64,000 nucleotides of DNA from Moniliella sp. 'wahieum' (GCA_003971905.1 RSEE01000033.1:372001-436000), one strand, 5' to 3'. Numbered from the stretch's first letter, positions 1 to 60,893 are shown. Numbers and translations are program-made. The notes: generated by a model from the letters alone, not told the origin.

Positions 1-884
1 GTAGTCAACACAGCATCCGCAACCGGTACGTTTGGCCTCTCGTTCTCAGGCTAGGTTTTCGATGATCGATACACCTGGTATCCAACCAAATTCGCAGTTT
101 CCACTGTAGGGCACGCAAGCCGCCCTTCGGGGTGGGGGCAATAGTGCTCCTCGTGGTCAAGAGGACTCGTGCTTTTTTGGCATGTCGGTGGTGTCCATCC
201 CCTCTGGCCTCCGGGTGCGGGGTGGGAGCGTGTACGAACCCAGTTATGCGTTTCCAGCGGCCCACTGAAGCGGTTCGTTTGCATTGGTCCGAGTTGAAGC
301 CTGCCTTGCCCAGTGACGGCCCACAGACCTTCCTTGGAAGTCTGAGATTTCCCAGCCTGCCCCGATGTCGCGTCTACCGAATAGTGTAGCGTTCTGACTG
401 ACCTTCATGCCGCGCAGATTGGGCTTCTCAACCTCCACTCGTTCACTGACCTAGGGCGCCACTCTAGTAAGTTTCTTCTCTATGATTACGGTACTGATCC
501 ATCGCCCACTGCATCTAGTGCTTTCCAACATATGCTTGCCTGTGTGACTTGAGATAATTGCTCAACATGAAATAGCTTGTATCCAAGCCTTCTCCACCCC
601 ATAGAGCCGACATCGGATGGCATGACGAGGATCCCCAGCGCACGCGAACCGAAAATCTGCGCGTGCGTGTGTACAAAAGCGAATGCGTTGAAGCAAGGTC
701 TCTGTCACACCCAAGTCACACTAATCACTAGCGGCTTAAAGCTTAAAGCTAGCCAGTTGGGGCGTCTGACGTAATACATTTGGCAGTCTCGCGATGCAGG
801 TCGCCAACTCGTGAGATCAGGGATGCGGCGGTTTTTCAGAGACGCGTTGCATCCACCACCCCTTTTGCTCTCTCGAGCAGTCCG

Positions 885-1411
885 ATGCCAACACAACGTC
901 GGCGCCCAAATCCTCTCCATTGGCTGTATACAACAGCGGTGGTGCTGGTCCTCTCCTTTGTATCTCCCGTTTTTTCCGCCGCGTGCTCAGGCACCTACAC
1001 GGTTCAAGACAACGACACGTGCAACTCGATTGGGTACCAGACTTACACATCAACGTACCAGCTCATTGCGCTCAACATCGAGAACACTGGAGCAAGCTGC
1101 GAACAGCTGGAGACTGGCATGGTAGGTTGCCTCCCTTTCCATCACTTCCTTCCAGCGAATGCTCATATTGACCCGCTTTTCGGCGACGCAGGTGTTGTGT
1201 CTGGGTGTTTGGGTCCGACTGCCAGGTGGTGCATCAAGTCGGTGAGGACGAAACATGCACCTCGATCGCCGCCGATTTTGGCACTACTCCGGGCTTGATT
1301 GAAGCGAACAATCCAACGATGGGAGGTTGCACCAACATGTACCCCGGCCTCATGGTCTGCGTGGCACCGGGCCTTATGCACCCGCCCCCTCCGGCTGAGT
1401 TGGGACTTTAA
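885..1411 (+). CDS. Secreted-type protein with two LysM domains
   Basis: ATG 885, then a hydrophobic segment (AVVLVLSFVSPVFSA), LysM1 (CSGTYTVQDNDTCNSIG...QLIALN) and LysM2 (CQVVHQVGEDETCTSIAADFGTTPGLIEANNP...CTNMYPGLMVCV). Intron 1122-1191 (GTAGGT..TTGAC..CAG). One apparent indel after the intron. Confidence 0.85.
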
Positions 1412-2895
1412 CCCCTGGGATCGCCCCTCGTTTTTGTCCCTATTCTTCAGGCTTTCCTTTCTTAGAGGCTGGTCCTCGACACTCTCTGGCCTTGATCTCC
1501 TACCCCGTGGTGCTTGATACCCTTTTATTGGCCCAACCAAATGCACCTCCCTTTCGGTTGGCTCAGCCGCCTCGGCTCTGCCAAGTCGATGGATAGGATA
1601 CGCTTCATGTCAGAGGGTTACAGCCGATAACATTTTGCATAGTCGGTCCAGACCGACACGTCCAATATCCAGAAGGATGGGTCAAATGCCCTGTCCCTAT
1701 CCAGACACAAGACGAAGCAGTTGGGCGGCCAAGACGAGCACGCAGCTCTAAACACGGGTAATGAATGATGAAATACTCTCAGACCCCACGCGCCACCACC
1801 TGTTCGGAAGCTGAGAGAACCAAAGGCGGTGAGAGCCCTTGGACCCGAGTGTGTCGTTTTCCATCTCAACGTTCAACCCGGTCGGAAGATTAAACCAGTT
1901 ACTAATGGGGAGGCCCCCGACGCCGGTCGGTCCCACATATCTTGAACCCCCCCCCCCCCCCCCAATCTGTGACACAAGCATGGTCCTGCTGTCGCCACTA
2001 GCTTGTTCCTGGCCAGATTGTTAGCGCAAGGCAACAAAGGCACTGGGACTAGGAAGATACCGACACGTAAGAGGCTATAGTGCAGTTCCTAGTTCTCCAC
2101 ACCACCCGCCTTTTGGCCAATGAAGGAAATGTGTTATTGGACACTCCGGTTATGTACGGACGCTGAGCTCCACATGTCGTAGACATCTCATCCAAACACG
2201 CGTCAGCCGCGTTAAACTAGCGAGAGAGAGCCAACGGACACCTTATCCAAGCTACGAATATCATCCGCGGCCCGCCATGGTCACATGGTTCCAACATTTC
2301 CATTCCTCTCTCACCTTCCCACCTTCTACCACCTTTACGAATCTACGACTCACGTCAGTTACATAGCCACGGTTACTCTCAGGAGCGCTTGGGATGTTCG
2401 TTAGACTCCGTCTGATTCCGCCTATTACGCGTCGTCGAGTGCTACACATGCGGACCCAACTAGGCCCAGCAAGGTGCAAGAAGGCTATGTGAAATTGTGG
2501 AGCTTGAAAGGGCTGAAAGGGCCCCTTAGGCCTAAGCCCTAAGCCTTAGGCCTGGTAGGTAGCCATTTACGTCACGAAGACCAGAGGTTCAGCTCTTGCA
2601 GGAGCAGGCTCTCAGATTTCAGAGCGCTGAGGCTCAGCGGCTCAGCGCGCCCTCCAGCTCTGGGCCCCCAGTGCCTCAGTGCCTCGGTACTTCAGCGCAC
2701 CCAGTAGTAGGGTTACCCCCCGATCTCTCGTCCATCGCACGAGGCTCTAATGCGCTGACGTATCTGTTTGCGCACAGACGGTCTGTCGCAGATGTCAGCT
2801 CCCCAGCAATACAAGGCACCTCGTGTCCTGCTCCGGTCTATTCCACCCCTGCCTCCATCTTCGCACTTCGACGCCCTTTCGCCACCGACACCACA

Positions 2896-4635: not shown

Positions 4636-5962
4636 ACTGTGGTGATCGTGTGCAAGGGCGATGCCAAATACCATCGCGGACGGAGGCGACTATTAGAAGA
4701 TGGAGATGGGGTTCGACAGTGACTGAAAGTCAGGGTGAGGTGTTGGTGTATGTGGCGATGGTGAGGGTAAAAATGTTGAGCGGATGAGAAATTCACCTCT
4801 ACTTAGCCAAACAGGAGGACGGAAATGCGGGGGCGGGTGGTGTTGGTACAAGATGATACTGGCTCTGCGCCTCCACAGGAGAAAGTGGGTTTAACGTTTA
4901 CTTGTCAGGCCGTAGACTCATTACGCGTTACGCGTTACGCCTTGGACTGGAATTGGTGGGCCGAAGAACACTGCCCCCCCTCTCGGTACTCTATTTCTCC
5001 TATTTCTCCGAGCGGAGCCGTGGCCAGGCATGGGGCAGCAGCAAGACTTGCGGTACCTGTCCCGCAATTATAGGGGCTGGCTCCATGCCTTTGGAGAGCG
5101 GCAACGACTGTCGACGTCTCCGTCTTCCGTTATGGCGTCATCCACATCGAAAGCTACCACCAGCTCTCTCAACCCCTTGTGTCCCCTTTCGGGTATTCCA
5201 ATCCACATCCATATGGAATGTTCCCCGCAATTCGGGGAAAGAGAAGATTGATAAAGGCTGTTCTGACGTTGCCGTCTGTGGGGGATTCTGTCATCATTGG
5301 AACGACGTTGATGAAGTGAGGGATCCTCAGGCTCTCATACCGAACCCACCAAAAAGCCAACCAATCCTTCCCAATTGCAGTTCGGTTAGTTTTCTTACCA
5401 GCAATGACCGCGCGGCAATCGTCATTCGGCCTCTGACCTGATTTGCCCCTCTGTGGAAGAGTTTGATATAACCGAACCCATCCACACATACTTCTAATCC
5501 CTCTAAACTTTGGTTGATGGCCTGGGTTCTGCTAAAGGAGGAGAATGGAGGATGTGGTTCCGAGGAGAAATACAGGAGGTTATGAGAAGGGTAGAGGCTC
5601 ATATAGCCGGAGTCCCGGGGAGGGGAGGAAGCGTCCGGGCGGATAAGAGGGGTGATGTCTATCACGCAGGATGGCACGATTCGGGCATGGCCTAACCGGT
5701 TCTACGGTCCAAACAGATCGAGCATGACGATCCCAATGAATTTTTTGAAGACACCGTTTAGCCACAGCTGGAGACGTCTCCGAGATGAAGGTGAGGGTAG
5801 GATGGAACACTGGGATGCATGCGGAAGTGTGGGAGAGGCCAGGACCTCAGCAGGAGGGTACTGCCTTAGAAGACAGATCGGTCCAAACTCCTGGCCATGC
5901 AGGATATGAGAACGAAAAATCCTCCCGCCTGGACCTCGAAGAGGACAAGTGGAGTCGACATC

Positions 5963-6417: not shown

Positions 6418-6511
6418 CTTGGCTGCAGCGTCCCCGAAAAATTCAAGTGTGTCAGTCACTCTCACTCCTTTCCGCAACGCGAACGCTGGCGCAGTCAACA
6501 ACGGGACCTAC

Positions 6512-7653: not shown

Positions 7654-9074
7654 GCTTCTCGGCTTTACCTCGCACTGACATGGGGACCGCGGAATCTTCC
7701 GTTCCGTCGAACATATGTTGTCCATCGTTTATGACTTCCCTTTCTCGCTTGCACTGCTTCCCCACCCGTGCTTTTTGAGGAAGCTCATCCCGGGGGGCTA
7801 TACTAGATCAAGGAGCCTAAAGACTAACACGAGTCTTCTCTGAACCTTGGACTGTTCCTCTTGTCTCGCACCAAAACCATGGGCACTATGTCATGCTCTC
7901 CCTCCATCGCCTTAATCCTAAGGTTCCTTGTAGCGTCATAACTTTTGTTTGTTCATTGAGGCGGTAGTGGACATAAAAATGAGCGAGGTGACGTAGACAT
8001 TTACGACCACTGCAGAAGTGCAGAAGACTAGTATGCGATGTACGAGACTTACACACGACAGCTCTGATGGTACTTATGTGAAGCGATGATTGTCATAGGA
8101 TTGCGCTGGCAACTCTAGTCGTCGGGAGGTGAGGAATCGGTTTAATCAAGCAATACGCGTTTTTGGCATCGATAGTATCGTGTCTGGCATATGTGCCCGC
8201 AATCATCGGGTCATGGACAATGGTCCGCAGCCAACAGCGCCTCTGAGGGGACGGAGATGCATTTCAAGGAGAGTTGCTGAGATCAAAGCAATGGCTGTCA
8301 AATGCTGAAGCTGGCATTTGACCTGACCCCACCCGATAGAAGCTTCTCTCCCTTGCAGAACTACAGCGAGAGACTTCTCAAACATCTCCACCTTGTATAA
8401 TTGGTCCCATCTTGTCTGCCGTGCGCCAACGATGAAGAAGTGAGTTAACCGAGGGGGGAAACCAAATGGACAGTCGTCATGGGTCGGCATACGCCTCATT
8501 GGTTGCGAGGAGTAATTGGGCAGCGTTTTGGCACTGACACCACTTGATGTTGTGGATCTTCTTCCAGTCTGAATTTCACTCGGGTCGGTGAGGATGCGGA
8601 ATGGGGTACAACTTGCATTCCATGCTGTCACTTATACGAACCCATACCAGTAGGCATGTCCTGGGTTTGAGGGTGCAGAGAATGAACACAGCCAACGCGA
8701 GGCAACACGAACAAACCGGCATGGCCACCACTTGGTGCCAGTGGCTCGGTAGCGTTTTGCCCGTGAATAGGAGGATCCTCAATCGAGAGGGGATCACGGA
8801 CTCTCAGTGAGATACGTCACGTGACCGGTGACCCACCCCGATTCCGCTCATTCGCATCGCAGTTCCGCCCCCGGGGGCTTACACATACATGTGAGAAGTA
8901 GAATGCATTGGTGAGAAGGTCTGGGCGGTGCTTCGCTTGATGTGCCAGCCATCGGCCATGCTACACGGCCGGGGTTACTTCTGCCTGCCACGGGACGCGC
9001 GCTGCGCCCCTTATTCCCAACCCCTTGCGCCCCCGCCTCAGCGACGGCGCTTCGGGTTGGATTGGGCTGTCGCT

Positions 9075-10147: not shown

Positions 10148-10616
10148 GTGTTGGTTTCGGGCTTCACTAGTCAATCTCGCTACTCCCCTTTCGGTACCCG
10201 CACCTCCCCCACCACCTTTTGCCTCCCTGAAAAACACATATTGCACCCTAATTGGACTGATCATCGACCATGGCAGACAATGCCCTGATGATTAAGGAGC
10301 ATAGGCTTCTCGCGCGTTTCCAGGTCCTATCGCTTGTATATCCCTTTCTAGCTTCGATACATGGCAACTGTAGAAAACCACCCCGGTCGCTAAAGACTAT
10401 CGATGACGGCAACCCAGTGCGAGCGAGGTATCGTTTTAGCATTGAAGTTGGTAGTTATCGAGGGCAGCGTCGGTGGGAAGACTGTGGGAGAGGGGGAGTG
10501 AGGCCCATGTAAGGCCCATATGGCCTGAGGCCTGAGGGGCCTCATCAGCCTGAGGAAGCAAGGGAGTACGGACGCATGCAAAGGATAGGGTAGGCTTAGC
10601 ACAGCAACGCGCTTTC

Positions 10617-11609: not shown

Positions 11610-12295
11610 GATGAGAAGAAAGGGGAAAAAAGGAGAGGGAGGGGATGGAAGGTGAGGATGGTGGGACTCAAGCCAACCGAAAGGGCTGGCCTTTTAACAG
11701 GGCGAACGAGGCGGACGCCGATTCAGAAGCACTGGAGACGGTACTCACCACACTGACGCCGAGCGGCGCAGGAAGTGAAATGTTGTGTGCTGCCACGGGG
11801 CAGGTGCTTCTGGGGTCGGTGACCAGTGAGACCAGTGATCGGTGAAATTAAGGTAAAGCCCGGCAGGACACTGCCGCCGTGGCCTCTTTCGGCGATATCT
11901 TGGTCAGATGCCGACCAGTCAAACCCGCCTCCCTAGTCGGCCACGAGGCTGACCTGTGAATGCACCCCTGCCATGGGTTGAAGCTGAAGGAAGCTGAAGC
12001 TGAAGCTTGAAAACCGTCGCCATCTAATAGCCGCCGACGGCCGCTAGGGCGGATGGCCTCCCGCCGGTATCTGATGATCTTCTCGATCACCGATCATACC
12101 CGTGCCGCCCCCCGTCATGCATCACACATCGATAAATTCTGAGATCCAACTGACCTTGGTCGGGAGCGGAAATGGCCATTCAAAGTTTAAACGCTATTGC
12201 AATCGATAGCCATCATTGACTGCGGGAGGTGTCCTGGCTTGTCGTTTATTGTCGAACGAGCACCGAGACCGCCACCTCCAGAGCTTCTTTTCATC

Positions 12296-14376: not shown

Positions 14377-15291
14377 GTTGGAGTGCGGGGACAGGCGCTA
14401 GCAGGACGGGAAGGGCGGAGAGGTGCAAAGCGTATGTTGAGAAGGTTGGGCTCAACGCGGGGGAAGCTGTTTGGGGTGCGATCGCAGCAGACGGGGAAGG
14501 GTGCGGCCGATGTGGTGTGGGCGGAGGGCGGTGCCCAACGAGACGGGCGATGCAGCGGACGCGAGGAGGGCAGGCAGGGTAAGCAAGCACCAGGAGCTTT
14601 ATTCACCACGTCTGGATCGGGGCCGGGCGTTGGGTTCAGCGGCTTGCAGGCGGTCGCCCAGGCGGCCGAGCCGAAGCCCCACGTTAGCGACGCTGTGATG
14701 CGTCATGCATCATGGCCAGCCCCAGCACACACTGCTGTTCTGCGGACGGGGGGGGCGTGGCTAGGGTTGTCTGTGTCACCTATGCTGCTGCTGCTGCGCA
14801 GAAGGACACAGAGCCCAGGCACGCGTCACCAGCCCAGTCACCGTGCAATCACGCGCCCTGGGGAGCAGAAACCCTATCGGCGCCCCGAGTGCCCCCCTGC
14901 GCAAGCGCTCGCTGGGATGCTATCTAATCGATAATCTCGCTGGGCTGGCAGTGGGGCTGATGCATGAGTATGATGTATGGTGCATGATGGGCAGCCGACA
15001 CGGACGCAGCCATGCTCTGCTGTGCTTCGCTGGAAGCGCTTGGCTGCTGAGGGATGCCTCCGCGCCCGATCGCACATGCAGAGCGTCGTAGCCGGCGGCA
15101 AGGCCAGGCAGCGCAGGCCCAGGCACAGGCACGAGACACACCAGCACGCGGTCATGAATCAAATTAGTCGCTCGTAGCTCGGATCTTGTGAGGGCGTTCG
15201 TGAGGCCCGCCAGCTCGGGCGTCTCCGCGTCGTCTGCTAGCCTCCTCCCACTTGCCTTCCCTCTCCGGTCCAGCCCTGCCCGCTAGCCCTG

Positions 15292-20705: not shown

Positions 20706-20930
20706 AGACTAACAAGAGATGGAGAGGGGGGAAAGGATGAGGATCATATTCATCAAGCGGACAGAAGGCGAGGTATATATGGCTCGGAGAAGAAGAGAAC
20801 AGGCGAGCAAGTCACGGAGGAAGAAGAGGAGCATAATCAAAGGGGGGATACAGGGTCTAGAACAAATCAGCTAGGGACCAGTTAACTTGGCGATCAAACG
20901 TGATTAAGTGGGTCTAATCCGACATAGGCA
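20706..20930 (+). repeat. Dispersed repeat copy A (inverted relative to copy B at ~47630-47860); probable decayed mobile element
   Basis: Shared blocks with the reverse complement of copy B: GGAAAGGATGAGGATCATATTCATC, GGCGAGGTATATATG, CTCGGAGAAGAAGAGAACA, ACAGGGTCTAGAACAAATCA. Confidence 0.8.
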
Positions 20931-24105: not shown

Positions 24106-25624
24106 AGCGCTGTGGAGATGGGCTCTGTGCCCAGGGGGATGGTTTGGTTGGGGAACGGCGGGGGTCTCCTGGCCAGGCGGTGGCGAGGGTGGTGCGATCC
24201 TCTTGCTTTTCTTGTCGTCTCACTCTCTGTTTATGCGTAGGTGCATGATGCATGCGGGCAGTGGGGATGCTACTGGGCCATGGAGGGGCTTGCATGCACC
24301 CTGTTATGTGCATCATTAATCACGAAGAAATTCTAATGGCCTGAATGAGGGTTTATCGCGGCTGGCCAGCCTCGTTTGGGAGTTAGGAGGAACAGAAGAA
24401 GGAAGCGACGGGGGAAGATGCTAGACGCGTGCAGGCCGTGGATTCGTCCGATTCGTGGCGCAGGCGGAGCTGAGCAGAGCAGCATCGCGCCCGAACAACG
24501 TCCGCAGCTATTCGTCTTGGGCTGTCGTGGCAGAGGCGTGGATTGGGGGGTGGTTAGCCACGCGATCCAGGCAAGTGCATCTGAGAAGCGGAACGTTGAG
24601 ACGTGGTGTTGAACTGGGTTGGGCGGAATGGTTGAGCTCAGCAGGCATGCATATGCAACCTGCCAGCGCGGCAGTGTGACATGTGAGGGGCTAGTGACGC
24701 GTCAGGGACACAGCAGTCACTGGACCAGTCACGCGTCACGAGCCACTGCCCCCGTGCCTGCTGCCAGGAGGTTGTCATTAGTCCCTCGCGCGCCGTCTTG
24801 TCACCACGTCACGCGTCACCCCTCCCGCCTCACCCGCCCACCACTCGCGTCGGGCGGAGCAGTGCAAGCGGCCATGCTGGATGCCCCGCCGTCGCGCTGG
24901 CCGCTGCCCGCCTCGTTGGGCGCTGGGCGGGCTGGCCAGCACGGCCACGCATCGCCGTCGCCCCACAGGCGCCGCGGCACGCGGGCAAATATGACGTCAA
25001 CGCATGACGTATTTGTTTGGCCGACCATCCATCATCCATCAGCGCTCAGCCATCGCGGCGGCTCAGCATGCAGCACGCCTGCCCAGCCAGCACCCCGGCA
25101 CAGGCCCCGTGGCCCCCCGCGTGGGGAGCTGCACCTTGAAGCGTGTGTAATGCGCGCGACCGGTGATCTGCCCCGGGCAGGCAGGCGAGCCGGCAGCAGA
25201 CCAGTGCCAGCAGAGGGGGCACCTGGCCAGCGTGCCGCACGCGCCCGCATGGGCAGCAGGACGCAAGGCGCTGGAGGGGGCGGCGCGGGGGCGGTGTGGG
25301 CGCGGTGCACCCGCGGTCGCGCCGCCACAGCAGGCCAGCAGGCCACGGCGGGCGTGGCAGCGCGCGCACACCGCCCAGCATCCACCCGCGCCCACGCAGC
25401 CCAGCAGGCGGCCACTCCGCACTCACCCTCGCTGTCACCCGTCGCCCTGGCTCTTGGGCGGCGCAGCGCCTGCCCCCGTCGCTGCGTCGCCCAGCCTCAG
25501 CGGCCCCCTCGCCCCAGCCCATTGCGACCGCCGCTCCGTCTCGCGCCCCCCACCTCCTCCTCGCCTCTCCCTCCGCCGCCCCACCCCCGCCGCCTCCGAC
25601 AGCGTGCTGCCCGCCGCCCGCAGG

Positions 25625-31930: not shown

Positions 31931-32796
31931 GGCGACGCGAGAGGGGGAAACCAGCTGCAGAGTGCTCCTTGTGCGCGGTGGGGCCGGGCTGAAGCGACTC
32001 GGTCGGACGACTGAGCAGCGGTGGGGTGGGGGGGGGGGGGGGGAAAGCGCGGCCAGCCCGAGGCCCAGCAGCGCCCTCGCGCCACGGGCCCAGTGTCGCC
32101 CGCCGAAGCAATTTTTTTCTTCCGCCCAGCGGAACTGCCCCCGACGCAGCGGCCGAGCCCAGCGGAACCACCTGGCAGGCATCCACTATCCAGGAGGCTT
32201 GCAATGTTGAACGTTTGGCTGGACATGGGCCGATACGAGCAGCACGCGTCATCGATCATCCACCATCCTCACCTTTCAACTCAACTTGAACGTACGTCAG
32301 TGGCTTATCGCCCACACAGAACTCCAGTGCTAGGGACCAGTGAGCGGCGACTGACGAAATACCCTCATCCACTCATGCATCGTCCGTGAGATCTGAGTCT
32401 GAGGGGTTAGAGACGGCGACATCGAGAGATTGGGACAGGCAAAAAGTGTGGGGAGAGGCGAAGCGCACGGCACTGCCCTCACGCTCTGGCCTTCCCCAAT
32501 CGGACGGGCGGGCGAGGCGCAAGCAGGCCGCGGCGATTCTGGGGGGCGCGAGGCTGCGATGGGCGTCGACCACACACACACACCCCAGCACACAGGCCAG
32601 GCAGCAGGCGTCCCTCAGCCACACGCATCGCATCCATGCCGCTTTGACAGCCCCACCCCTAGCCCAGACGGTGCAAAAAAGTTGGTCCCACTCCGCTCAT
32701 CCGCATCCAGTATTCACGCCCAACACAAGCCAATCGCAGCGCCCAGCACCCGCCCCACCACCGCCTCTCTGGCCTTGGCAGCCCCCACCACCCGCC

Positions 32797-37961: not shown

Positions 37962-39294
37962 GCGCGCGATTTTTCCAGGCCCCCTTTTGCACCTTCTCAC
38001 ACACTCATCCTTGCTACCATTTTTTTTCTCTTTGCTCTGGTACATCCTGTGGAGATGTCAGCTGGCCTGGCATCCCCTCCCTGTTCCACTTTCGTTGGGC
38101 ATATGCCCTCGTGTTAAATGCACCACCACCTCCTCTTCCTCCTACCTTGTACCACAGACTTTCGTGTGACATGTCCCTGGGGCCAATCGGACACGCACCT
38201 TCGCTTCGAGTCGAACAAAGGAGATGGGTAGGAGGAAAGCGTGGCTAGGCCTTGGCTCCGATGACCGGGACCTTTGATGATCGATGATGATATATGATAG
38301 TGCAGTCACCGGCACTAGCCACATGTCACACAAGGAAATACTAATCAGGTTAATCAGCGTAACGCCACCAGGTGGTGCCAACCAGCTGACCACGCTTGTC
38401 TGACCACAGCGCGGCACTAGCGTGGCACACCATTTACAGGGGGGCAAAAGGCGGTGGGTGGATCGATGATCATTCGTGGGGACAGCAGTCGAATTCTCTT
38501 GGCACAGCCTCAGGACGTTCACTATGTTCGCGCACAACCACAACGGCCGGCCGGCCATTGTTGCTTCAAGCTTCAAGCTGCAAGCTTGAGTTCTATATAT
38601 CAAGCGCCACAATAGTACCGCCAGTTTTCTTGTCTGTCCTCGTCCTACCACCGCCACCGTTCTACCTTTGCGGTTTCTGCCAGGCAGGTCTTTCCCCGTT
38701 GCCTCTCTGCTGGATGCATCTGACCCATGTTTTTCTGCGCTCACTATAGTTGTCCGCGATGCCCGCCGTTCTTAACCCCCCGCTGTTGCGATGGTGTCCC
38801 CGGTGCAAGTATGTCACCACCTCCTACGACTGCATCTGCCGCCTGTGGCAAAATTACTGGCCCCGTCAAGCATTGCAACAGCGTCTGAGTTCACGCCTGT
38901 TTCTTATTCTTCTTCCTGCTACATCTCTGCCTGCCTCCAAAAAGATTCCCGATCGGCCTGCTCTGTCGCTGCGGGATGAGCCCTGTACCGTTTGATACGG
39001 CCAGCACTCCCCATCATCCTCTGTTTCCAATTTACTGTCATGGCGCATGGCGCCTAGCCCCCCCCCCCCCCCGCCTTCCGCCCGGGTCCTATCTCCCCGT
39101 TTGCGTTTCCCCGCTCGTCATGGGATACGGTGAATAAGATAAAAGTGAAGTGAATCATCCAGCATCGAGCAATGCCACTCCGATTCGGATGCATATGCAA
39201 ATCAACTTGTCTGGGTAGCGGAGTCGATAGATTCCTGGGCTGCGCAGGCGGCAAGTCCCGAGGGGGGAAGCATGAGATGACTCGCGGATCACCC

Positions 39295-44927: not shown

Positions 44928-45704
44928 TCTGGGACGGGAGCAAAACGGAGGGGCGTCGACGGAGGGGGGAATTCGAACTGGGAGGGGCGGGGGGGGAGGG
45001 GGCTGGGTTATAAACGCGGCAGCAGGCGAGCGCCTCGGAAGCGTGCAGGTGCGGGGCAGAAGGGAAGGTAGGCACTGGGTCGGCCGACGCCTCGGATCTC
45101 GGGCCTAAGATCTAAGCATCATTATAGGCGGTGGGCGCACTGGCAGGCAGTCTCCCGCCGACGAACGCGAGGGGCCCGGTGCCTGGGCACGGGCAAGCGC
45201 CGACCGGCAGCTCGGCAGTGTGCCTCGTGTCCAGCGAGTGTCGTGCGCTGCTGCCTGCTGCCTGCTTAGCGCCCAACCGATGCGGCACAGGTGGTGGGGC
45301 CCCATCTGCATCATCCACCCCGCATCACTGCTCAAGTACCCAGTCCTCGGCTGCAGCGCGGACGGGTGACCAGTGACAGTGGCCCTGGCGCACGCGACGA
45401 GCATCTTGCCGATCGCAACCGAGGCGACGACATTGGGGCATCAGCACACTGTGCCTGCTGTGCCCGGTCGTGCCTGGCCGAGGGTTAAACCAAAGTATCG
45501 CTGTGCTCCCCCTGCCGAGCTGCCGGGCGCAAGGGGCCAGCGCCACGGCGCCCTTCATGGACTCAGGCACTGAGGCGCTTATTGAGCGCCTGGAGCGGCC
45601 GGAGATGGGCAACCTAGGCGTGGGAACTGTGTGATGCAGCGGCAGCGCTGTGGCAGCCAGTAGTCAGTAGAGGTGGCGCATGCGCCGATCAACGCGAATT
45701 CTCA

Positions 45705-46250
45705 TGGTACATGATGCATGATGCATGATGCATGATGTGTATTGAATTCGCATTGCTGAGCAACACTGGCGAGAGAGGGCGAGGAACAATGATTAAAGAT
45801 CGATGATCGATGATCAATGATTAATGATGCATGATGCACAGGCTGAGCGCTGTGCGGCTGAGGCCATGCCATGATGTGTGATGCATGCATGCCAGCCGGC
45901 CGCGAGCGCGAGCGCAAGCCGAAACCGGAGCGAGTCCGAGCTGCCTGGGGCGTCACCTGACGCGTGACGCCTGACGTGCGACGCGGGACACTTGAAGCTT
46001 GAAGCTTGAAGCTTGAAGTTAAGGCTTGAAGCTAAGATGGAGTACACGTGCCCCGGTCACCGGCCTCACCGGTCACATGCACCCAACTGCGCGTCGAGCC
46101 CATATAGGCCGAGTCATTAATGGTTAGTCACTAGACACTAGTAGTCATTAGCCCTAAGAACAGCCGGCCCTCGCCTGCCCTCGCGTCTTTCCTTGGTGCG
46201 CCTCTTATCGATTATCGCATCCACCAACATCGATCGGATCGATCAGGACT
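45705..46250. repeat. Cluster of 7-bp-period TNA+palindromic-tetramer arrays
   Basis: (TGATGCA)3 at 45712, mixed TTAA/TCGA/TGCA array 45790-45838, CGCG-to-AGCT array 45958-46020, TTATCGATTA 46205. Confidence 0.85.
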
Positions 46251-47629
46251 CTCACTATTCAGACTATTACCCTGATGCATGAATCATGGATGGTCAATTT
46301 TCCTTTTCTTGTCGTGAACCATGGATGGTCAATTTTCCTTTTCTTGTCGAATCGGAAGGTCGTTTTTACTCCCTTTTTAGTCTTTGTTTTGTATATTGAT
46401 TCGTTCATTCTTCTTCCGAGAGACGTTTTGGATGAAGTTTGCGGGTGGATACTCTTTTGCTGGAGGGTAGTGCTCCCTTACACGGCCCTTGGTTGATCGG
46501 TGACGCTCGCATAGCCGGGCGGATGAAGAGTAGTTCCGCTCTTGGCAGGGCTACGCACCCTGCTTATCCCTCCTCTCTCTCCTGTCTCCTTCCCTTCAGG
46601 CCCTTCAGGCGTTGCTTGAAGACTTGTGGCTCACCACTTTTCCTTCACGCCTTAGGTTTAGCTTCTGCTTCCTTCCCTGGCCTGTTGCTCTTCACAACTA
46701 ATGAGACGTTGCTTGAAGACATGCGGCTCACTACTTTGCCTTCACGCCTTCTCTGAAGGCTACTTTGCAGCTGATCCGTATGATCGCGAAGAGTGCTCCC
46801 AAGTCGCATTCTAGCATCTTTGTCTCGAAGAGCTCTGCACAGCATCACTGTTTCTGTCCTTTCTATTCTCCTCTGCATAGGTTACGAGGGGACCACTGGG
46901 CCTATTATACGGCCCGGTCTGCTGGGGCTTCTCCCCAGCTTGTTTGAGTGCTAGGCCACCGTAGCCACCGTAACCACCGTTCCAATGTTCCACCGTGTCC
47001 CATGCTTTGAATTTCATCACCAATACGCTGGGATATGCGCGGTGGTAAACCTAAACAATTACTAGGAGTATGCACACCATCGTGTTCTCTTTTATCTTTT
47101 TTGTCCCAGCAGCTTAAGCTCTGTCAATGATATGGCTACAGAATATAGGAGGTACTGATCAAGCTGATCAAGCGAAGACAGATGGCGGAAAGCGCGCCAT
47201 ATCCCACAGGCGTGCATTGCTGGCGCACCCACATTATCGTATACACATGTGTTACCGTGTGGGTGATGATCTCTGTGAGAAGGCGACTTGTACAATAGTA
47301 GTCTCTCTTCTCCTTTGGACTTTGGCACATCATCTAACCCCCGCTTCAACGGCTGATCCATCTGCCGATCCAAAGGGAAAAGGCTTCCTGTGTGTGGCAA
47401 ACGTCCCTGTCGCTTTTCCTTGTGATTATTGAAGCTGTTGTGGAAATACGGGACATCCCCTGTGACTGTGGGGTTGCTGGCTTCCCAAGCGGAGACCTTC
47501 CCTGCCCATCGGGACAAGACTCACGGAGGACTAAACGCGTTTCAGATCCAAAGCCCCAAGAAGCACTGGCGTGAACGTTGCAGGGTCGTGAGTAGTGCTT
47601 TACTGTTCGTCAGGCAGAGCCAAGCAGCG

Positions 47630-47860
47630 TCCGTGTCGGGATCAGACTCACTTGATCACATTCTCTGTCACCAAGTTATCTGGCCCCCTTTGATTTGTTC
47701 TAGACCCTGTTTTCCCCCTTTGGATTGTGCTCCCTCTTTCCCTCCATGTGATTCAGCTCGCATGTTCTCTTCTTCTCCGAGGCATATATACCTCGCCTCC
47801 TCTTCACTCGATGAATATGATCCTCATCCTTTCCCCCATCTCCATCTCCCGTTAGTCCGC
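47630..47860 (-). repeat. Dispersed repeat copy B (inverted relative to copy A at ~20706-20930)
   Basis: Its reverse complement aligns by eye with 20706-20930 over ~225 bp, with scattered substitutions and small indels. Confidence 0.8.
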
Positions 47861-49863
47861 GGGGAGGTTGCACGTTCGGGGTCGGACGAGAAAGCTGCGA
47901 GTCCCGAGGGGCGAGGGAGGGGAAGCACGCTGATCGCAAAGGTGGTTCTTCTAGAGTGGAGTTTGCCTAGAAGAGGGATGAAGTGGAACGGGAAGAAATC
48001 AAAATGGGGGGCGGCTTGGGCCATCACCATATATTTGGATCTAAGAACAGGCAGGTTTTATAGAAGAGAAAGGGAAGAAAGGGCAGACCAACAGGTCTAC
48101 AGCAAAGGGGAACGAGTCAAAGGGAAGAAGTGAGGACCAAGTGCGAGGTGCCCGAGGTGAGAGACGAGGCGAGGGTCAAGGGCAAAGTGAACCCGAGACG
48201 AGAAACGAGGCGAGAGAGCGAGTCGAAATCATGTGTAGTGTTTTGGATTTTGACGAGCGGAGCGGAGAAGAGACAATTTGTTATGCATTTGTAGATGTGT
48301 TGAGAAACGAAAGCGAAGGATGGCGAACTTGAGTGGTGATAGTAAGAGAAACCGAGAAGCGAGAGCGACGATGAGGAAGTGGAGGTAGCGCGACTTAATC
48401 GTCGCCCCGTGATATTCCCCCTGCGCATTCTCCTGAATTTGTTGTGAATGCACGCGCTCGGGGCCGTGTTGGGCGCGTGTTGCGTCCTTGAGCGAGAGAT
48501 GACGAGCAAGGTAGGTGTCCACAGCAAAAAGACAACCCTGATGATGTGCCGAAGGGATTGAACCCCTTATTACATTCAATTCTGACTTGTGGACCGTAAG
48601 AGGAAATCATTCTAACGACGGGCGGCCCTGCACAGGCCAGCCAAGTACCTTTGCCCTGTCATCAAAAGGGAGAGGGAAGAGAGTTTCTCCGGAGTTTTTG
48701 ATGGTTGTGTGGCTCGCACATTTTTCTTCTCCCTCAAAAAGATTAGTACCTTTTGCATCCTTTGTTGTCACTACCGCCACGATCGGCTATAAAAGCTCTC
48801 TCGCTCTTCCAATGTCCTATTTCTGTCTCCCGTGTATCTTTTGCTCTTCCCTTTCCTCTCCTTTGCTCCTGACACCTGGGCGATGACATTGGTTCCTCCG
48901 CGAACGATCTTAGGATTTCCCCCGTCTCGTCAAGGCACCCTCCTGTAGCCCCGTTAGAGTCCTGTTGGCCAGTGGGTACGGCGCATAATACCCTCGGCGT
49001 GGCTTTTTGACAACCGTTTTGCTTTAAGGCCGAGAACATGATGATTGAGATAAATGTTCAAACGGAAAAGGGGCGGCTTGCTTACTATTCAATGCACAAG
49101 GACTGGTTTGCGGGGGCATCCTTCTGATAGCAGTTTTGGATGGGGAAGGGGCACAGCAATAATGGATTTCTTCGACTTGATTGGTCCGTCTCGTTGCCCT
49201 GACGACAATAGTCCGCGTGACCGACCACAGCCAGAACGACCGATCCGATGGTCGGTGCAACGCAGCTGATCCGTCACGGTGACCGGTGGCCGGTGGCCGG
49301 TGAGCGGTGACCCGTTTCGGTTTGAAATTGTAGCTTGGAAGCATAGATAGTGCTTGCACTGTGAATTTGAATTGCAAAGGCCGGATTGACTGGGGGCGGC
49401 GGGTGTGCGGTGGGCAGTGCGCCAGTTGAGACTGCCGCCGTGATGCCGGGGTGTGTTGAACGTTGAGAGACTGCACAGGTGCAGGCAGATACGCCGGTAT
49501 CAAATCGGGTTGATGCATGAGGCATGATGCATGACGCATGGCGCTCGAGCCAATTAAAAACTCCATATCCAACGCTCATCGATCCATCACCGATCGTATC
49601 AATAGCAGCGCATCCTGCGCCAGATGCGATGCCTGATGCCTGAGACCTGCAGCTGGGGACCCCATGCGCTTCGGTCGGAGTGCGGTTGCAATCCTTCCAG
49701 CCCGGCAAAGTGCCCCTTGTGCCCGCTGCCCACACAGCAATCATTAATCAACACGCGACGGACCCAGGCCAGTACCCCCCCGCCACCCCACCCCATCGCC
49801 TTCTCCTATGCCACCCACGCCGGCTGCTTGATCTGCCCACCCATCCCTCTGTCCGAGCCCGCC

Positions 49864-52265: not shown

Positions 52266-53550
52266 CTGATCCGTTACATCCGTCTCTGGCTGTGTATCCA
52301 TTAATTATCGGGTTATGTGTAAATCGCTATCGGGGTGTTGTGTGCATGACTGTTGTTCCATCTGTGATGGCATGGTCCTCTCGTCAATGGGATTGATTCC
52401 TAGCTGTATGACATCCCCTGTGTATCGACAGGCTCCTATACCCTTGAAGCAGGTATAGCGACCACGAGAGGACTATCAAGACGGCACAGTCGTTCATATG
52501 TGCTCCAATCATGGAAGATAACCAACGTGTATTCGGGAAAGAAACGGGGTACTATGCTCTCGTTCCCTCTTTACTTTTGGGGGAATGGGACGGTGTCCCA
52601 TGATATCAACTGGACCCCGCCTGTGCGGTGTCAAGGTGGAAGAGGGAGTCGTGCCTATATATGAATGCGCCTTCACGACTGGGTCAAACAGGTGGGTGGC
52701 TCAAAGGGGAGCGGTGAAGAAACGAAGGGGAGCGATGACCCACGGGGGAGACAGCGGTGGTGCCAAGGTTGGTGAGCTCTGTGATGAAAAGGCGAAGGAT
52801 TTCACTAGCGGAGGAGAAACGCGAGGCCGATAAAAGCGTAAGGAATAGCCATACAGAGGTTCTTCAACCGCTACTTCCGGGGTCTTGTTGCCCCTTGACC
52901 AGGATCATCCCTATAGGCGCCTCCCCTCCTATACCGACACCCACCTTCACATGATGGGGCTGCCTGCCATGCGCGTATGACGGGGTATCCGCCGCTGCGT
53001 GATAGGACACCACCCCCTTATCCGCCCGGACGCTCTCTCTTCTCCCGGTACCCACAGCTACGTGAGGCCCAACTCATCTCATCGCCTCCTGCACATCTAT
53101 ACTCAGAACCACATCTTCCATTCTCTCCCCCTTCAGGTGTAATACCGGTTCCCTCCTTTGGGCATCATCATTGCATCATTGTGCAATCCGACTGACAACA
53201 GAAGAGTGGGCCTCTACGGCGTTTAATCATAGCAGATGATGAGTGGGCTTCGTAATTGGAGGGAAGATGATGCGAGGAGTGTGAGATATGAAAAGAAACG
53301 TCAAACGTCACAAGCGTTAACAATCACAACGAAAGGTAGGATGATGTGGTCAGAACACAACAACAGTGAGAGTGTGCACAAGGGGGCATCAATGATGGAT
53401 GGACAGCTAAACGACAGTGTTCAAGAATAGTTTTCACGAGAGGAATAGGGATGTTGAGAGGATGAATGAGATTGAGCCGCCGCGGGACTCACAGGCCTGC
53501 AGCCGCGGGAGAGTGGTTCGCATTGACTCTCTGGCCCAAGCCTCTTTTTT

Positions 53551-55265: not shown

Positions 55266-58010
55266 AGTGGTGAGATACTGGAAAGGGCGAGTTGAAGGGT
55301 GGAAGGTGGAAGGTGGAAGGTGGAAGGTGGAAGGAGGGAATTCGGAGGAGAGAAGAGGACTGATATACACTGGTGAGAGTCTTTTAGCTTTTTTAAGAGA
55401 GGATCTGGTGCAGTTGTGGGAGTGTGGGTGGAAAAGAGGGGCGAAGCATTGGAGATGGTGTCGGATGATATGTTGAGTATTTGAAGATGAAGATAGCGTT
55501 GACACGACGAGAGAAATCTATGTAAAGTGGATGTGGTGTAAAGCAAAACCGCACCTGCCGGACAGCGGTAATGAGAAGCTTGAAGGGAGCAAGCTTGGAG
55601 CAAGACGGGGGTTGGGGGCTGTGGGGGGCAAGAGTGGCGGGAAAAGATGATGTACATAGTGGTTTCGGGTTAGCATCACAGGTACACAGCGAGTAAGACT
55701 TCGCAATGTGCAACTAGCTGTTATGAGTGCGGGGTTAGTCCGGTTAGTCCCTTATAGTACTTTCAGGCATAAAGCTTTGAAGCTTGAAGCTCTTCGCAGG
55801 CCCCTCAGTCTGAGGACTGAGGTACCGCATGGGCACACCTCTGCCACCGGTGCGCCCTTTGACAACCGCGTCGTCCGCAACATCCAAGGACCCTCCACCT
55901 CAGGCCTCACTCCTCTTCCTATGCCTGGCCTACTGTTCCATCGTAACGTCCTATATTGCACTGGCTCAGTGTGTGCTCAGCCTGAGCGCTCAGCAGTGGA
56001 CACTGGTCACCGACATAGTACCCCACACACCCAACGTCCAACACTGTTGGGACCCGTGGTCCCGTACTTAGGCCAAGGCGCCTCATCACCCTTCACCCCT
56101 GATTTGTCCTCCGAAGCCTCCACGTGTATACTCAGGCTTGTCTGAACCCCTGTCTCTAGGTGTGGCACAAGGCTTAGACCTTAACCACCACCATCGCGAT
56201 TGCACTGCTCTACATTTCCAGAGGTTCTTCACCCAATCCCTTGGGTTCCTCCGGTCTTACAAACACCTCTCTCCGCTCCTTACCGGTTACCGGTTACCGG
56301 CCTTACCCACCACCCACCGGGGCCGCCCACAATTGCCTGGACGTAGGTGGGCCTTTTCCCAACTGCACCCTATTATATTACACCCTTGTGCTTCAAACTC
56401 GTCTCAGATAACTAGTAACTGTGGCAAAAATCCCTATATGGTATTCCAATCACTGTTCAACGTTCCTGTTACTCAGAGCCCCAATGAGCTTCATGTAGCC
56501 TAGAACATGTAACAGGGCTAGACCCTAAGGCCTAAGACCAATTCTCCCCACTCGCCTCGGTTCAACTTGTTCAACCAGTTTCGGTACGAGGGGCTATTGC
56601 ACGCGAAAAAAAAAACATCAGATCTCAGATCAGGAGTAGCTTGTGAGCCGTCCCCCAGGTCCCACAGCTCTTCAGAATGTTTCATCTGTCCATCACTGCA
56701 ATTGCCCCCACAGTGCGGCGACCATAAGAGTCCCACAGGCACCCACCACATATAATAGCACGGCCACACATGGCCGTAGCCATCGCCAGTAAACAAATTT
56801 TCTGATGGTGTGCACATACATACTGGAGCTTCGTATATGCTTTCCCCAACGACCAGTACGAGATGGATGAAAGGAACATTATATGTAAGGTGTTTCTGCG
56901 AGTTTTGCCAAGGGAAAACAGTAGTAGGGCTGTGTGGGAGCTACAAGGAAATTCGTGTAACACCTATTAAGTTCTTTTCCCCACACATCCTTATTACAGC
57001 TAGTAGCTATTACAGGCCCATCTGATCAAGCTGATCAAGGCCTCCGCATGTAACGCGGGCCATTACGCACAGAAGGTCCAAGATTGAAGGCAGATACCAT
57101 GGCGTTGCAGACCCAGAGGATGCAGGAGGCTATACCTTTGTTGCATGTCCTTTCGAAAAAAAGAACGCATGGCGCGGCGCGGGGGTCGGGCCGGCGGCAT
57201 AGAAAAGGCCGGCGGGCATTCCATCTCGCTGGTTGCCTCAACAACCCCCAACAGCATGTGAGGCCTGAGGTCGATGATCGACGATGATCGATGAGGCCGA
57301 TGAGGCCTCTCAGCCTGTTGGGCCCTGAGCCTGAGGAGGCCTTAGGCCTTACGAAGGTACCCTCCGTAGTATGACTTCAGGCCCACAGACCAGGGGCCGT
57401 TCCGAACGGTTTTAAAGAGCTTCCAATAGTCGTGGTATTTTTGCCATCTGTCACATGTCAGAAGCTGGAGCAGCTGACTCCCAGACGCATGAGATTGCGA
57501 GCAGTGGAACTCGGTAGCCCCTGTGCTGCACTGCCTGAGCTACCGGAGCTGTGCCTGTGGCGAAAGAGGGGAGGACGCAGGCAGACGGCTCGCAGACGGC
57601 GTGGGAGCGTCACGGCAGAATTGGGTTTTGTTGGATCCGCGTTCGGCGCTTTCTAGTTTCCTGGTAATGCAGCTTGCTGCCCCAGGCTGCCCCTTGAAAG
57701 CCCCTCCCCGCGTAAGAGCGACACCCTGCGACGCCGGGTGTCCGGGCATGGCACAGCGTAGCCTTTTTTCCTGATTCCAATTGATTATTCGCCTCCGAGA
57801 AATACGGCATTGCAGGACATTGCCAATTCCACCTGCTGAAGCTGCTGAAAAAGGGAGAAATGACAAAACCCTAGTGCGAGGATTGCTGCGGCATATATTC
57901 TGACCGGCTTACACTAGGGTTGCCATCGCACTTCGCGGCCGTGCTCACCCACGCCGCCCTCGCGCAACGGACGTCTTCACCACCTGAAGCACTCTAGCAC
58001 ACCAAACAGA

Positions 58011-58431
58011 ATGGTAAGTGACTTCTCATACTTCTTGCGTGAGGGTTGTGAGGTGCATCGGCATCCGGGCCTAGATGTAGAACCTGGCGGCGCGCGCATA
58101 TATGACCCTCTCTTTCGCTTGCCTCAAAATCGGGACGCTAACCCATCCGTCTGCAGTCCAAGCGTACGACGAAGGTTGGGATCACCGGCAAGTACGGCAC
58201 TCGTTACGGGTCGACTCTCCGCCGCCAAGTCAAAAGATCGAGATCTCCCAGCACGCCCGATACACGTGCGCCTTCTGTGGCAAGGACGCTGTCAAGCGCC
58301 GCGCTGTTGGCATCTGGGACTGCCGTGCTTGCAAGAAGCAGGTGGCCGGCGGTGCATGGGCCCTCTCTACCACGGCCGCTGCCACCGTTCGCAGCACCAT
58401 CCGCCGCCTGCGTGAGCTTTCGGATGCCTAA
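58011..58431 (+). CDS. RPL43: 60S ribosomal protein L43 (eL43/L37a)
   Basis: ATG, intron 58014-58156 (GTAAGT..GCTAAC..CAG), then [50 protein letters not shown]. Confidence 0.96.
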
Positions 58432-60831
58432 ACGCCATCGCGGTGCACTAGCCTCGGTCACTCTTCCCATTTTACATTCCCAACCTCGGTCTCGTTCCCA
58501 TTCCATTGCTCTATCATCTCAACTCCGCTATGCACCACTGATGGGGCTTGTCGGGTGAACAAACAGTTTTGCTTAGGCACTGGACTCCAGTACCTGCTTG
58601 CCGACGCACTCACTGGGAAATGCCGTGATGAGCGTGTCTTTTACCCTGACAGGTTGGAGGGGTCCGGTCCTGCACGCGGTTCATGTTGGTGAACTGCCCG
58701 CAAAAACCAATCATGCATGACGTCTATGCATCAACGAAGCATCGCGGTGGGAAGGACGGATGCCATATATAGGACTTTGTTCCACAAGAGTCCAGCCAGT
58801 CGACCCCCCTCGTGTTCAGCGCCTGTCTGGCTGTCGCGAATCATTGCTACTTTCAACGCATTCTATACAGCCCTGTGTATCTGCAGCGTATACCCTTCCA
58901 GAGGAGTTGAAGTGCTCGAGTGAGGTCACGACTGTGGTGGATGTATGTCGCCAACAAGTGATGGCGTGGTTCAGCCCCTTGAGTGTGAATTGATTATAGC
59001 CTCTCAAGTGTGTTGGTGCAGGATGGTGAGCAGGGTTGTATGGAGCACACACGCAGCCACACGATGTCAGGTATAATCCAGCTATAGCAGCCTGCAAACC
59101 CAACTAACATAGAATAGCCGATTGTGTTGGTTGCGTGCCCGTAAACCCATTACCCAGACAGATCCGATACCTACGACTACGATCTATACTCCTTTGGACA
59201 AAGTTCCATACCGAATGATCTATTCCCACGGCATATCGGCCTTCGTTATATCATACGCAATCTCGCCAGCGCAATTCGCTAGCTCCAACAGTGGCCACCC
59301 TCGAATCCGCATGGGTGGCTCTGCTCCCTCATCCGCCATCACCACTCTCCCATCATTTCCTTCCAAAATATGTACCGTATCATTCCCGACGCCAGCCTAT
59401 TCACCATCCCCGTGACACCAGCATCGGGTTTTCAGGCTTTCGTGTATGCATTTTGAACAGCCCTCCCTACATATCGGTTTGGAGCCCCATACACTTGTCC
59501 GGTGTAGACAAGTTCGGCAGCATTCTCTAAGCATATCCTTTGGTACCCTCTCTCCTTTTTCTCACTTACCATCATGCAATCAACATCGCCTATTTCACTT
59601 TGGATCTGAAGTAGACGGAATATTCTCTCCCCTACCTTCACAATGGGCTCCACCACTCAGCGAGTATAAGTTGGTTTTTGGAGCGAAATGTTCTTGGTAC
59701 ACTTCCCCCTTATTGGGGGGTTGCTAAGCAAACCGACACGCCGTACGTGAGTCCAAGGAGCAACGAAGACGACTTCCACCTTTTGCATTCTTTCCACCTT
59801 TTGCATTCTGGGCCCACAATCAAAGACCACACAGTCGAGGACAAAATCAGTCAGCCGTTGTCTCCTTTCCCTCGGCGGTGGGCTCGCTTGCAGATGTTCA
59901 AATTCTTACTGTTGGGGCAGGTCTCGCCTCAAGGGCAAATTACTAGACTGTTATCACGGTCAACCATACTGTGGCCTTGGCATCGTCGGTTTATCAATGC
60001 TTGAGGCGTTAATGTTGGAATTCTCCATCAGGGACAAACCCTGAAGTGAATATGGCGATGAACATTCGCTTGGTAATTCAAGTGGATTATGATATGGGGT
60101 CAATTTCCCCACTTTCTCTACTCTTATCCTTACGGCACCACATAAGGCGCCTCATCGGCCGCTAACAATTTTCTCAAAAGGCGGTTCAGCGACTTTGAAA
60201 ACCAGCTTCGTCAAACTTGGATCGTCTATTGCCTTATCCTATATGAGCCCCCATTCATTGGTGCGGCGGAAGGACTCCATGTGACGGATAATGAGCTCAT
60301 GGGACGGAGGCCTCACCAACATCGAATAGGAGACGTCACACCAGATTTTGGGATCCGCATCTCTGCTGACTCTCCTCAAAAATCCCTACTCAAGCCAAGT
60401 CGTCAAGGGATGGAAACCTGCCTTGGCTACATTCCGCGGGAGATTGACAGGCGGTGCCGAGAAAGGCAGAGTTTCCTACCTTCATCCTTTTCATCGATTA
60501 CCTTTTCTTCCTTTTTTAGTTCTTTCAGCTCTTCTCTTCTCTCTTTTTGTGTGGTAGTTGTGCATTTTCTTTGTTTATTGTTACAGGGCCTGGGGTATAT
60601 GCGTCAGTGTGGACATAGCGCCTCAAAAACAAAGAATCATCGGCCACTTCTGCTTTTGAATCGCCCGTTTATATCCTTTTTCGCTGGTCCTCCGCAAATC
60701 CCAGCTGGGTAGAATGAAATGGCGGGTGGCCAAAAGGTCACAACCGGTTGAAGTCGTTGAAGAGCCGGTGGAGTGAAATTTTAGTAGCCTAGCACGGCGC
60801 TGCCTTGTGAAACAGCCAGGCAAAGTGGGAG

Positions 60832-60893
60832 TGACTAGTGACTAATGGCTAGGCAAGGTGACCGGTGACTAGTGACTAGTGACTAGTGACTAG
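60832..60893. repeat. 7-bp array (TGACTAG)n with one TGACCGG unit, upstream of PEX5
   Basis: GTGACTAGTGACTA...GGTGACCGGTGACTAGTGACTAGTGACTAGTGACTAG. Confidence 0.9.

Follow-up and report, generated by a model that had tools for sequence, protein, structure and literature searches.

In a 64,000-bp stretch of the genome of Moniliella sp. 'wahieum' (GCA_003971905.1 RSEE01000033.1:372001-436000; the whole stretch is hereafter called the window, and positions are counted from its first letter), short motifs of the form TNA-N4-TNA, in which N4 is a palindromic tetramer, occur far more often than expected. We found that the actual unit behind these motifs is an asymmetric 12-mer, TNAxy-y'x'-TNAxy: a 5-bp direct repeat, TNAxy, encloses 2 nucleotides (nt), and these form the reverse complement of xy, the end of the repeat. 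Perfect copies number 69 on the two strands, as compared with 0.2 expected from order-3 Markov simulations, and one-off variants number 70, as compared with 6.3. The unit is templated by the host sequence, specific to TNA, and restricted almost entirely to non-coding DNA, and the pattern is absent from the control loci of other fungi. These motifs are very probably mutational scars. The cause that we favor, on a case that is about evenly balanced, is a repeated TNA-specific staggered break, introduced by a DDE transposase, or by an enzyme derived from one, and repaired via a hairpin-like step; the break, the hairpin step, and the transposase are the parts of this explanation that we infer.

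Excess of palindromic tetramers between TNA trinucleotides

Among the 176 TNA-N4-TNA 10-mers in the window, 71 (40%) have a palindromic N4. The background was obtained by 30 simulations for each of the Markov orders 1, 3, and 5, and the mean numbers of palindromic 10-mers were 7.6, 6.1, and 10.5, respectively, with a maximum of 19. An initial description of this DNA (the sequence-only reading) had proposed an excess over about 8 chance matches and a comparison between palindromic and non-palindromic spacers; on both points the present count agrees with what it anticipated. All 25 of the examples that it listed either carry the motif at the position given or lie within about 10 nt of one. The motif TGA-TATA-TGA exists as described, but at position 38288, not 38297. 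Likewise, its statement that at least 14 of the 16 palindromic tetramers occur is correct, since 15 of them were found and only ATAT is missing.

The excess is confined to one combination of flanks. When the 256 classes of the XNY..XNY type were compared, (TNA,TNA) was the sole outlier: its palindromic fraction was 0.403, while that of the next class was 0.124 and that of all tetramers in the window was 0.059. A palindromic tetramer that follows TNA without a second TNA is barely enriched (7.0-7.8% versus 5-6.6%), and palindromic spacers of 2 nt and 6 nt between two TNAs are at or near the chance level (20/82 and 4/132, respectively).

As an outside control, we used 80 loci (826,645 bp) of other fungi, collected around the homologues of the eIF3a gene in the window. 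The best protein identity of these homologues is only 54-57%, so that intergenic alignment is impossible and the loci serve as a negative control only. In these loci, 130 of the 2087 TNA-N4-TNA 10-mers (6.2%) are palindromic, which is the naive expectation, and the difference from the window is highly significant (Fisher p = 1.6e-33). The pattern thus belongs to this genome or lineage, not to fungi in general.

Structure of the 12-mer unit

The middle bases (N) of the two flanking TNAs are identical in 64 of the 71 palindromic matches and complementary in 5. Thus, the flanks form a direct repeat, and the 10-mer is neither a dyad nor a 10-bp palindrome. The 71 matches constitute 61 chains, and in the 54 chains with the same N, the identity at a period of 7 extends by at least 2 nt on one side in 44, while it does so on both sides in only 9. 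The runs of period-7 matches that are exactly 5 nt long (n = 21) start at the T in 8 cases and 2 nt before the T in another 8, and the symmetric register was found in 1. The two common registers (0 and 2) are reverse complements of each other. From these registers and the one-sided extension, the direct repeat is 5 nt in length, not the 3 nt (TNA) originally assumed. The arrays had also been regarded as symmetric series of 6-bp palindromes; this view has to be replaced, because the tetramer takes one of its halves from the adjoining flank and N is repeated, not complemented.

The evidence for this copying is as follows. Half of the tetramer equals the 2 nt just outside the motif in 54 of the 64 same-N matches, as compared with 14 of the 42 same-N non-palindromic controls (p = 1.1e-7). 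Thus, the tetramer is host-templated. The dinucleotide xy takes 14 of the 16 possible forms, each at 0 to 2 times its availability and none at more than 2 times. Such broad use is predicted by a host-templated origin, and not by a handful of element families. There is no strand bias among the scars (30 versus 24).

The dependence on T and A is strict: a T at position 1 of the repeat and an A at position 3 are both indispensable. The first base of the 12-mer is T in 69 matches, as compared with 3-4 each for A, C, and G, and other complementary anchor pairs, such as CNG and GNC, gave 2 matches each. An unbiased scan, in which two copies of any five-base word W had to enclose the reverse complement of the two closing bases of W, pointed the same way. 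In the window, W was of the TNAxy type in 69 of the 108 hits, and most of the others were alternative registers of the same arrays; in the 827 kb of other fungi, 96 hits were obtained versus about 101 expected, and 7 of them were of the TNA type.

The spacing is equally fixed. Direct repeats of TNAxy are enriched at a gap of 2 nt only, where 85 were found, 69 of them with the inverted dinucleotide; for gaps of 0, 1, 3, and 5-8 nt, their numbers in the window match the background. The mirror product, TNAxy-N'A-TNAxy, in which the inverted bases would come from the TNA end, was found 0 times in the window, versus 69 for the 12-mer.

Arrays and number of events

The 61 chains consist of 55 single units, 3 double, 2 triple, and 1 quadruple. 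With Tandem Repeats Finder, up to about 9 degenerate copies were detected at 60830-60893. There are also mixed arrays, such as that at 45787-45838, in which adjacent units carry the same TNA and differ in the tetramer. On inspection by eye, one or two ancestral TNA sites suffice to generate them if the 12-mer rule acts on both strands, with the right flank as the source for the top strand and the left flank for the bottom strand.

When the rule was applied in reverse over the window, 54 events (378 bp) were removed, and the palindromic share fell from 40% to 14% (17/120). What is left comprises five 10-bp palindromes, a number close to chance by our own estimate, and units whose flank has since changed. 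On average, there is one event in about 1.2 kb of the window. Among the period-7 runs in general, the share of the TNA class rises from 2.7%, the chance level, at a run length of 3 to 25-37% at run lengths of 5-6.

Positions relative to genes

We used a conservative coding mask, which covers 24% of the window. Only 1 of the 71 palindromic matches lies in the mask (binomial p = 1.6e-7), and to this extent the initial impression that the motifs lie outside the coding sequences is right. The depletion is not specific to them, however: the non-palindromic TNA-N4-TNA 10-mers are similarly rare there (6/105), and exclusion from coding DNA is therefore not a property of the palindromic class as such. 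The matches gather in gene-adjoining stretches, often within a few hundred base pairs of the starts, and they are also found in 3' regions (10164 and 10526).

Proposed origin of the scars

In the explanation that we favor, the elementary event would convert a host pentamer TNAxy into TNAxy-y'x'-TNAxy, with a gain of 7 bp. The direct duplication of 5 bp would come from a filled-in staggered break or from a target-site duplication, and the 2 inverted nt between the copies would come from an end of the hairpin type, similar to that giving P nucleotides, opened off-centre. The product regenerates the target, so that repeated events can build arrays with a period of 7. Such arrays would thus represent successive events at the same site, with or without later slippage, and events on the opposite strand would use the other flank and produce mixed arrays. 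The enzyme may belong to a cut-and-paste element with insertion at TNA and subsequent excision, or it may be a nuclease derived from a transposase, and it would act mainly on gene-flanking non-coding DNA. The strict T-N-A anchor, together with the single fixed geometry, points to an enzyme and argues against polymerase error.

The components of this explanation have precedents in the literature. TNA is a documented transposase target: the PIF/Harbinger elements use TWA, and NuwaII uses C/TNA/G (the slashes delimit the TNA), for which the authors left it undecided whether the duplication is 3 or 5 bp (PMC4482050). The element mPing accepts any middle base in its target (PMC4561436). Palindromic nucleotides copied from the flank are an accepted signature of excision through flank hairpins (PMC4561436, PMC5873905), and hairpin ends opened off-centre are described for Ac/Ds, Transib/RAG, and MULEs (PMC4561436, PMC5873905, PMC5499845).

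Several points weigh against this explanation. A scan of the 64 kb for terminal inverted repeats (TIRs) of at least 9 nt with flanking duplications gave 44 pairs, a chance-level number, and none of them has a TNA duplication; the search for TIR elements between TNA duplications that the sequence-only reading recommended is therefore negative within the window. No transposase family was matched in the 197 open reading frames scanned out of the 213 of at least 110 amino acids (aa) in the window. The products are far more uniform than footprints left by hairpins and non-homologous end joining: Ac/Ds in Candida, for example, gave 28 footprint types in 128 excisions in the data described in PMC5873905. 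The reaction is also one-sided, with the inverted dinucleotide always coming from the end distal to TNA (69 versus 0), which a symmetric transposase dimer does not predict. As to the particular families, the PIF/Harbinger elements, which are known users of TNA, are described as excising precisely (PMC4561436), and Transib, a family with 5-bp duplications and blunt hairpins, is described as preferring symmetric GC-rich targets (PMC1131882). Finally, the exact product could not be derived from any published cleavage geometry that we tried, nor from snap-back end joining.

The candidate models worked through in this connection were as follows. A hairpin of the hAT type with a 1-nt offset on duplications of 5, 7, or 8 bp, worked by hand, predicts a different product, as do flank hairpins on a 3-bp TNA duplication and snap-back synthesis-dependent microhomology-mediated end joining. 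The 5' TNA overhangs of the piggyBac/mPing type would give precise repair or TNATNA. A symmetric stagger of 7 nt requires both flanks to be palindromic, which is true of only 9 of the 54 chains, and two independent flank hairpins fit only 1 of the 42 non-palindromic same-N matches.

The anatomy is most like that of transposon or hairpin footprints, with an unusual, deterministic, and one-sided geometry; this geometry (an even palindrome, one-sided and invariant) matches none of the described transposon superfamily footprints with which we compared it. Tentatively, the lineage may carry an uncharacterized sequence-specific DNA-breaking activity, due to an unusual or domesticated transposase or to another nuclease, which would cut at T-N-A with a one-sided stagger of 5 nt and a fixed 2-nt hairpin sealing. 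Such an activity would leave a deterministic 7-bp scar about once per kb of gene-flanking DNA and would continuously remodel promoters.

Alternative explanations

The strongest alternative is a mutational process independent of transposons, which we consider possible but rather unlikely. In this process, an endogenous nuclease, or a template switch in replication or repair, would be responsible: synthesis would pass through TNAxy, 2 nt would be copied from the opposite or nascent strand, and synthesis would restart at the T. A hairpin or template-switch process was one of three origins offered by the sequence-only reading, and it does fit the inverted 2 nt, which are host-templated. It is also consistent with the lack of an element or a transposase in the TIR scan and among the scanned open reading frames, and the excess of plain tandem duplications of 7, 8, and 9 bp suggests a duplication-prone repair background. 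By itself, however, it leaves unexplained the strict T-N-A (T at position 1 in 69 versus 3-4, and A at position 3, are not accounted for by polymerase error) and the single 5 + 2 geometry. Moreover, the 12-mer is not above chance in the 827 kb of other fungi and is therefore no general property of fungal replication.

It is improbable that the motifs are selected cis-regulatory or structural elements, that is, symmetric sites read by shape or platforms that exclude nucleosomes. The concentration in gene-flanking non-coding DNA, often a few hundred base pairs from the starts, agrees with such a role, and a symmetry-read promoter element had been among the three origins offered. However, the palindrome follows from flank copying: any tetramer serves, and its identity is set by the neighboring bases. 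The repetition of N gives no dyad of the kind read by proteins, the non-palindromic 10-mers are equally depleted in coding DNA, and there is a tail of decayed copies. The proposal is thus unsupported.

Ordinary heptanucleotide microsatellites produced by replication slippage alone are still less probable. A few arrays do have 3-4 perfect copies, and generic period-7 repeats are also present. Nevertheless, 55 of the 61 chains are single units, and the modal period-7 run of 5 nt corresponds to 1.7 copies plus 2 new inverted bases, which cannot arise by slippage.

Excision footprints of the canonical Tc1-like form, the remaining origin offered, would consist of a 3-bp TNA duplication and 2 bp left from each TIR. 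The 3 + 4 + 3 layout and the fixed filler of 4 nt do resemble those of elements cut 2 nt inside their ends, as described in PMC4561436, TNA is indeed directly duplicated, and the arrays look like the results of repeated events. The derivation of the tetramer from the TIRs is nevertheless refuted by flank copying: the filler should come from the element and be constant within a family, while 15 tetramers were seen, half of the tetramer matches the flank (54/64 versus 14/42), and the direct repeat measures 5 nt instead of 3. In this form, the proposal is very improbable. An artefact of assembly or base calling is the least probable of all. Nothing in its favor was found; against it, the pattern is sequence-specific and confined to non-coding DNA, some copies are decayed, some arrays are mixed, and a homopolymer character is lacking.

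Comparison with known systems

In full-text searches of the literature, we found no description of a heptamer composed of TNA and a palindromic tetramer. The nearest is a statement about Ustilago maydis: numerous 10-bp repeats are scattered over its genome and have been proposed as footprints of past activity of transposable elements (TEs) (Ali et al. 2014, PMC4081816, citing Laurie 2012 and Schirawski et al. 2010). In its cluster 19A, 26 of these repeats lie between effector genes (PMC4081816). By this description only, the likeness to the window is that both belong to basidiomycetes and have many very short intergenic repeats, that the U. maydis genome is TE-poor and gene-dense, and that relics of transposons have been proposed. 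The sequence of the 10-bp repeat was not found in the supplementary files of that paper that were searched (11 of 15). Heptamers of the ATTCACG type, such as the sequence-only reading attributed to U. maydis, would not fit the TNAxy rule.

The PIF/Harbinger-ISL2EU-Spy superfamily (PHIS), which includes NuwaII and mPing, shares with the window a T-N-A target and duplication with any middle base (PMC4482050, PMC4561436). According to PMC4482050, PHIS occurs in fungi and its transposases are related to those of IS5. Its duplication, however, is of 3 bp, or of 5 bp centred on TNA, while the 5-bp repeat in the window is TNA plus 2 nt on one side. NuwaII has C and G beside TNA, and no such preference is seen in the window (C before T in 14/69 and G after A in 11/69). 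The excision of mPing is described as precise and without a footprint (PMC4561436), while each of the sites in the window, if they are excision sites, carries a gain of 7 bp. PHIS elements would be expected to have TIRs, a DDE transposase, and a Myb-like open reading frame; none was found by the TIR scan or among the scanned open reading frames of the window.

The footprints of hAT elements (Ac/Ds) resemble the scars in that the extra nt are palindromic copies of the host flank and both copies of the target duplication are kept (PMC5873905, PMC4561436). They differ in that the hAT palindrome, as described in PMC5873905, is odd, with the complement of the element-adjoining base at its centre, and heterogeneous, while that in the window is even (its axis falls between y and y') and has one spacing. 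The hAT duplications are usually 8 bp in length (5-8 bp in variants), and families of hAT5 with 5-bp duplications are mentioned in PMC12730594; the repeat in the window is 5 bp and anchored to T-N-A.

The opening of RAG-type hairpins prefers the +2 position, 2 nt off the tip, and would add exactly 2 palindromic nt. Transib/RAG is also similar in its 5-bp target duplication and, by analogy with RAG, in its blunt flank hairpins (PMC1131882). The Transib targets described there, however, are GC-rich and symmetric (CGGCG, CASTG, and CAWTG), while TNAxy is asymmetric, and the report of Transib in fungi there is from soybean rust only (PMC1131882). In addition, P nucleotides are possible at either end in Transib/RAG, while in the window the inverted nt arise only at the end away from TNA. 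No Transib transposase gene was matched in the scanned open reading frames of the window.

Tc1/mariner elements have one dominant scar of fixed length, composed of a duplication, 4 nt, and a duplication, and allow iteration at the regenerated target. Their filler is derived from the element and constant, while that in the window is copied from the flank and varies by site. A heptanucleotide microsatellite is different again, as it needs at least two full exact copies, while the window mostly has single units with 2 inverted new bases.

If the motifs are scars, about 54 events in 64 kb would imply tens of thousands in the whole of a small, gene-dense fungal genome, and nearly all of them would be located in the promoters and 3' regions, the non-coding DNA that flanks genes, resulting in a major lineage-specific turnover of regulatory sequences. 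The regularity of the scar (the T-N-A anchor, the one-sided stagger of 5 nt, and the inverted nt, exactly 2 in number) would be the fingerprint of an enzyme and could be compared with candidate transposases. The rule may also explain the short intergenic footprint repeats of smut fungi, which have long been noted and are poorly characterized, and it offers a means to polarize and date insertions in comparative genomics of the clade.

Gene context and other repeats in the window

The window is basidiomycete nuclear DNA with a G+C content of 58%, dense in genes with short exons. It contains housekeeping genes, namely those for thioredoxin reductase, ribosomal proteins S6, S13, and L37a, eIF3a, ATP synthase OSCP, an Arf GTPase, a GMC oxidoreductase, an MFS transporter, and a polysaccharide deacetylase. 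The thioredoxin reductase has about 75-80% identity to those of many basidiomycetes (Tilletia, Naganishia, Tilletiaria, Meira, and others) and 90% to one further record. The positions of the matches relative to these genes are given in Table 1. Within the cluster upstream of the polysaccharide deacetylase gene, two 4-copy arrays are accompanied by mixed arrays, in which differing tetramers are attached to the same TGA; directly beside this cluster, at 46280-46349, there is a 35-bp tandem duplication (2.0 copies, 97% matches). The array region at the end of the series lies upstream of a 331-aa open reading frame and stops about 55 bp short of its ATG.

Table 1. Positions of the TNA-N4-TNA matches and of the short tandem duplications in the window
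Position	Feature	Gene context
737..60889	Whole set: 71 matches, 61 chains, 69 perfect 12-mers, about 54 inferred 7-bp insertions	
734..750	Short array, 2.4 copies of the TAA + AGCT heptamer	
4921..4940	Array, 2.9 copies of TTA + CGCG	
10522..10537	2.3 copies of TGA + GGCC	3' region between convergent LETM1-like and thioredoxin reductase genes
12001..12124	Two single scars	Divergent promoter of thioredoxin reductase (-) and GPN-type ATP-binding (+) genes
14703..14967	Three single scars	Upstream of Arf-family GTPase gene (-)
24677..24818	Four single matches, one a 10-bp palindrome with complementary N	Downstream of GMC oxidoreductase gene
32249..32396	Two single scars	Just upstream of eIF3a gene (-)
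38275..38587	Two short arrays: TGA + TCGA/TATA; TCA + AGCT, 3.6 copies	
45106..46282	Densest cluster, 14 matches in 1.2 kb	Upstream of polysaccharide deacetylase gene (-)
49457..49750	Four matches	Directly upstream of MFS transporter gene (+)
55778..57460	Twelve matches: 3-copy array of TTA + CCGG, and a region in which periods of 7 and 9 bp are mixed	
60491..60893	Seven matches, including the longest array (TGA + CTAG, after a TGA + CCGG unit)	
2505-2522, 4991-5009, 11821-11838, 36031-36052, 36186-36227, 36451-36469, 39524-39541	9-bp tandem duplications	
46592-46610, 46955-46980, 47155-47173, 55733-55750, 57022-57039, 57289-57307	9-bp tandem duplications (continued)	
2631-2647, 2669-2685, 8011-8026, 18412-18429, 25328-25345, 41108-41126, 53166-53181	8-bp tandem duplications	

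Perfect 9-bp tandem duplications, of about 2.0-2.4 copies and with no requirement for a palindrome, are also in excess: period-9 match runs of at least 7 nt number 43, versus about 3.3 in the simulations. They do not belong to the same class as the 12-mers, since a palindromic tetramer is present in 9 of 14 units, near our own chance estimate of about 44%. An identical 9-mer is duplicated at two sites, 47155 and 57022. These duplications may be plain target-duplication relics of another type of element, or they may reflect a duplication-prone repair background. Perfect 8-bp tandem duplications (2.0-2.4 copies) are likewise commoner than in the simulations.

A dispersed repeat of about 225 bp occurs in two copies of opposite orientation, at 20707-20930 and 47630-47857, which are about 85% identical. 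It has neither obvious TIRs nor an obvious TNA duplication, and a search of Rfam gave 0 matches; a conserved block of non-coding DNA or a small non-autonomous element are both possible readings. At the G+C-rich end of the window, a 28-bp unit repeated 5.4 times (94% matches) is followed by C-rich repeats of 18-29 bp (63156-63307 and 63392-63658). These lie inside long open frames and could be a repetitive proline-rich coding region. The segment 24000-32000, which takes in the eIF3a gene as well as several long open frames, overlapping and on both strands, has a G+C content of 65-70%, as compared with 52-60% elsewhere. Long homopolymers were found in non-coding DNA: C17 at 1947-1963, G21 with one interruption at 32023-32043, and C15 at 39058-39072.

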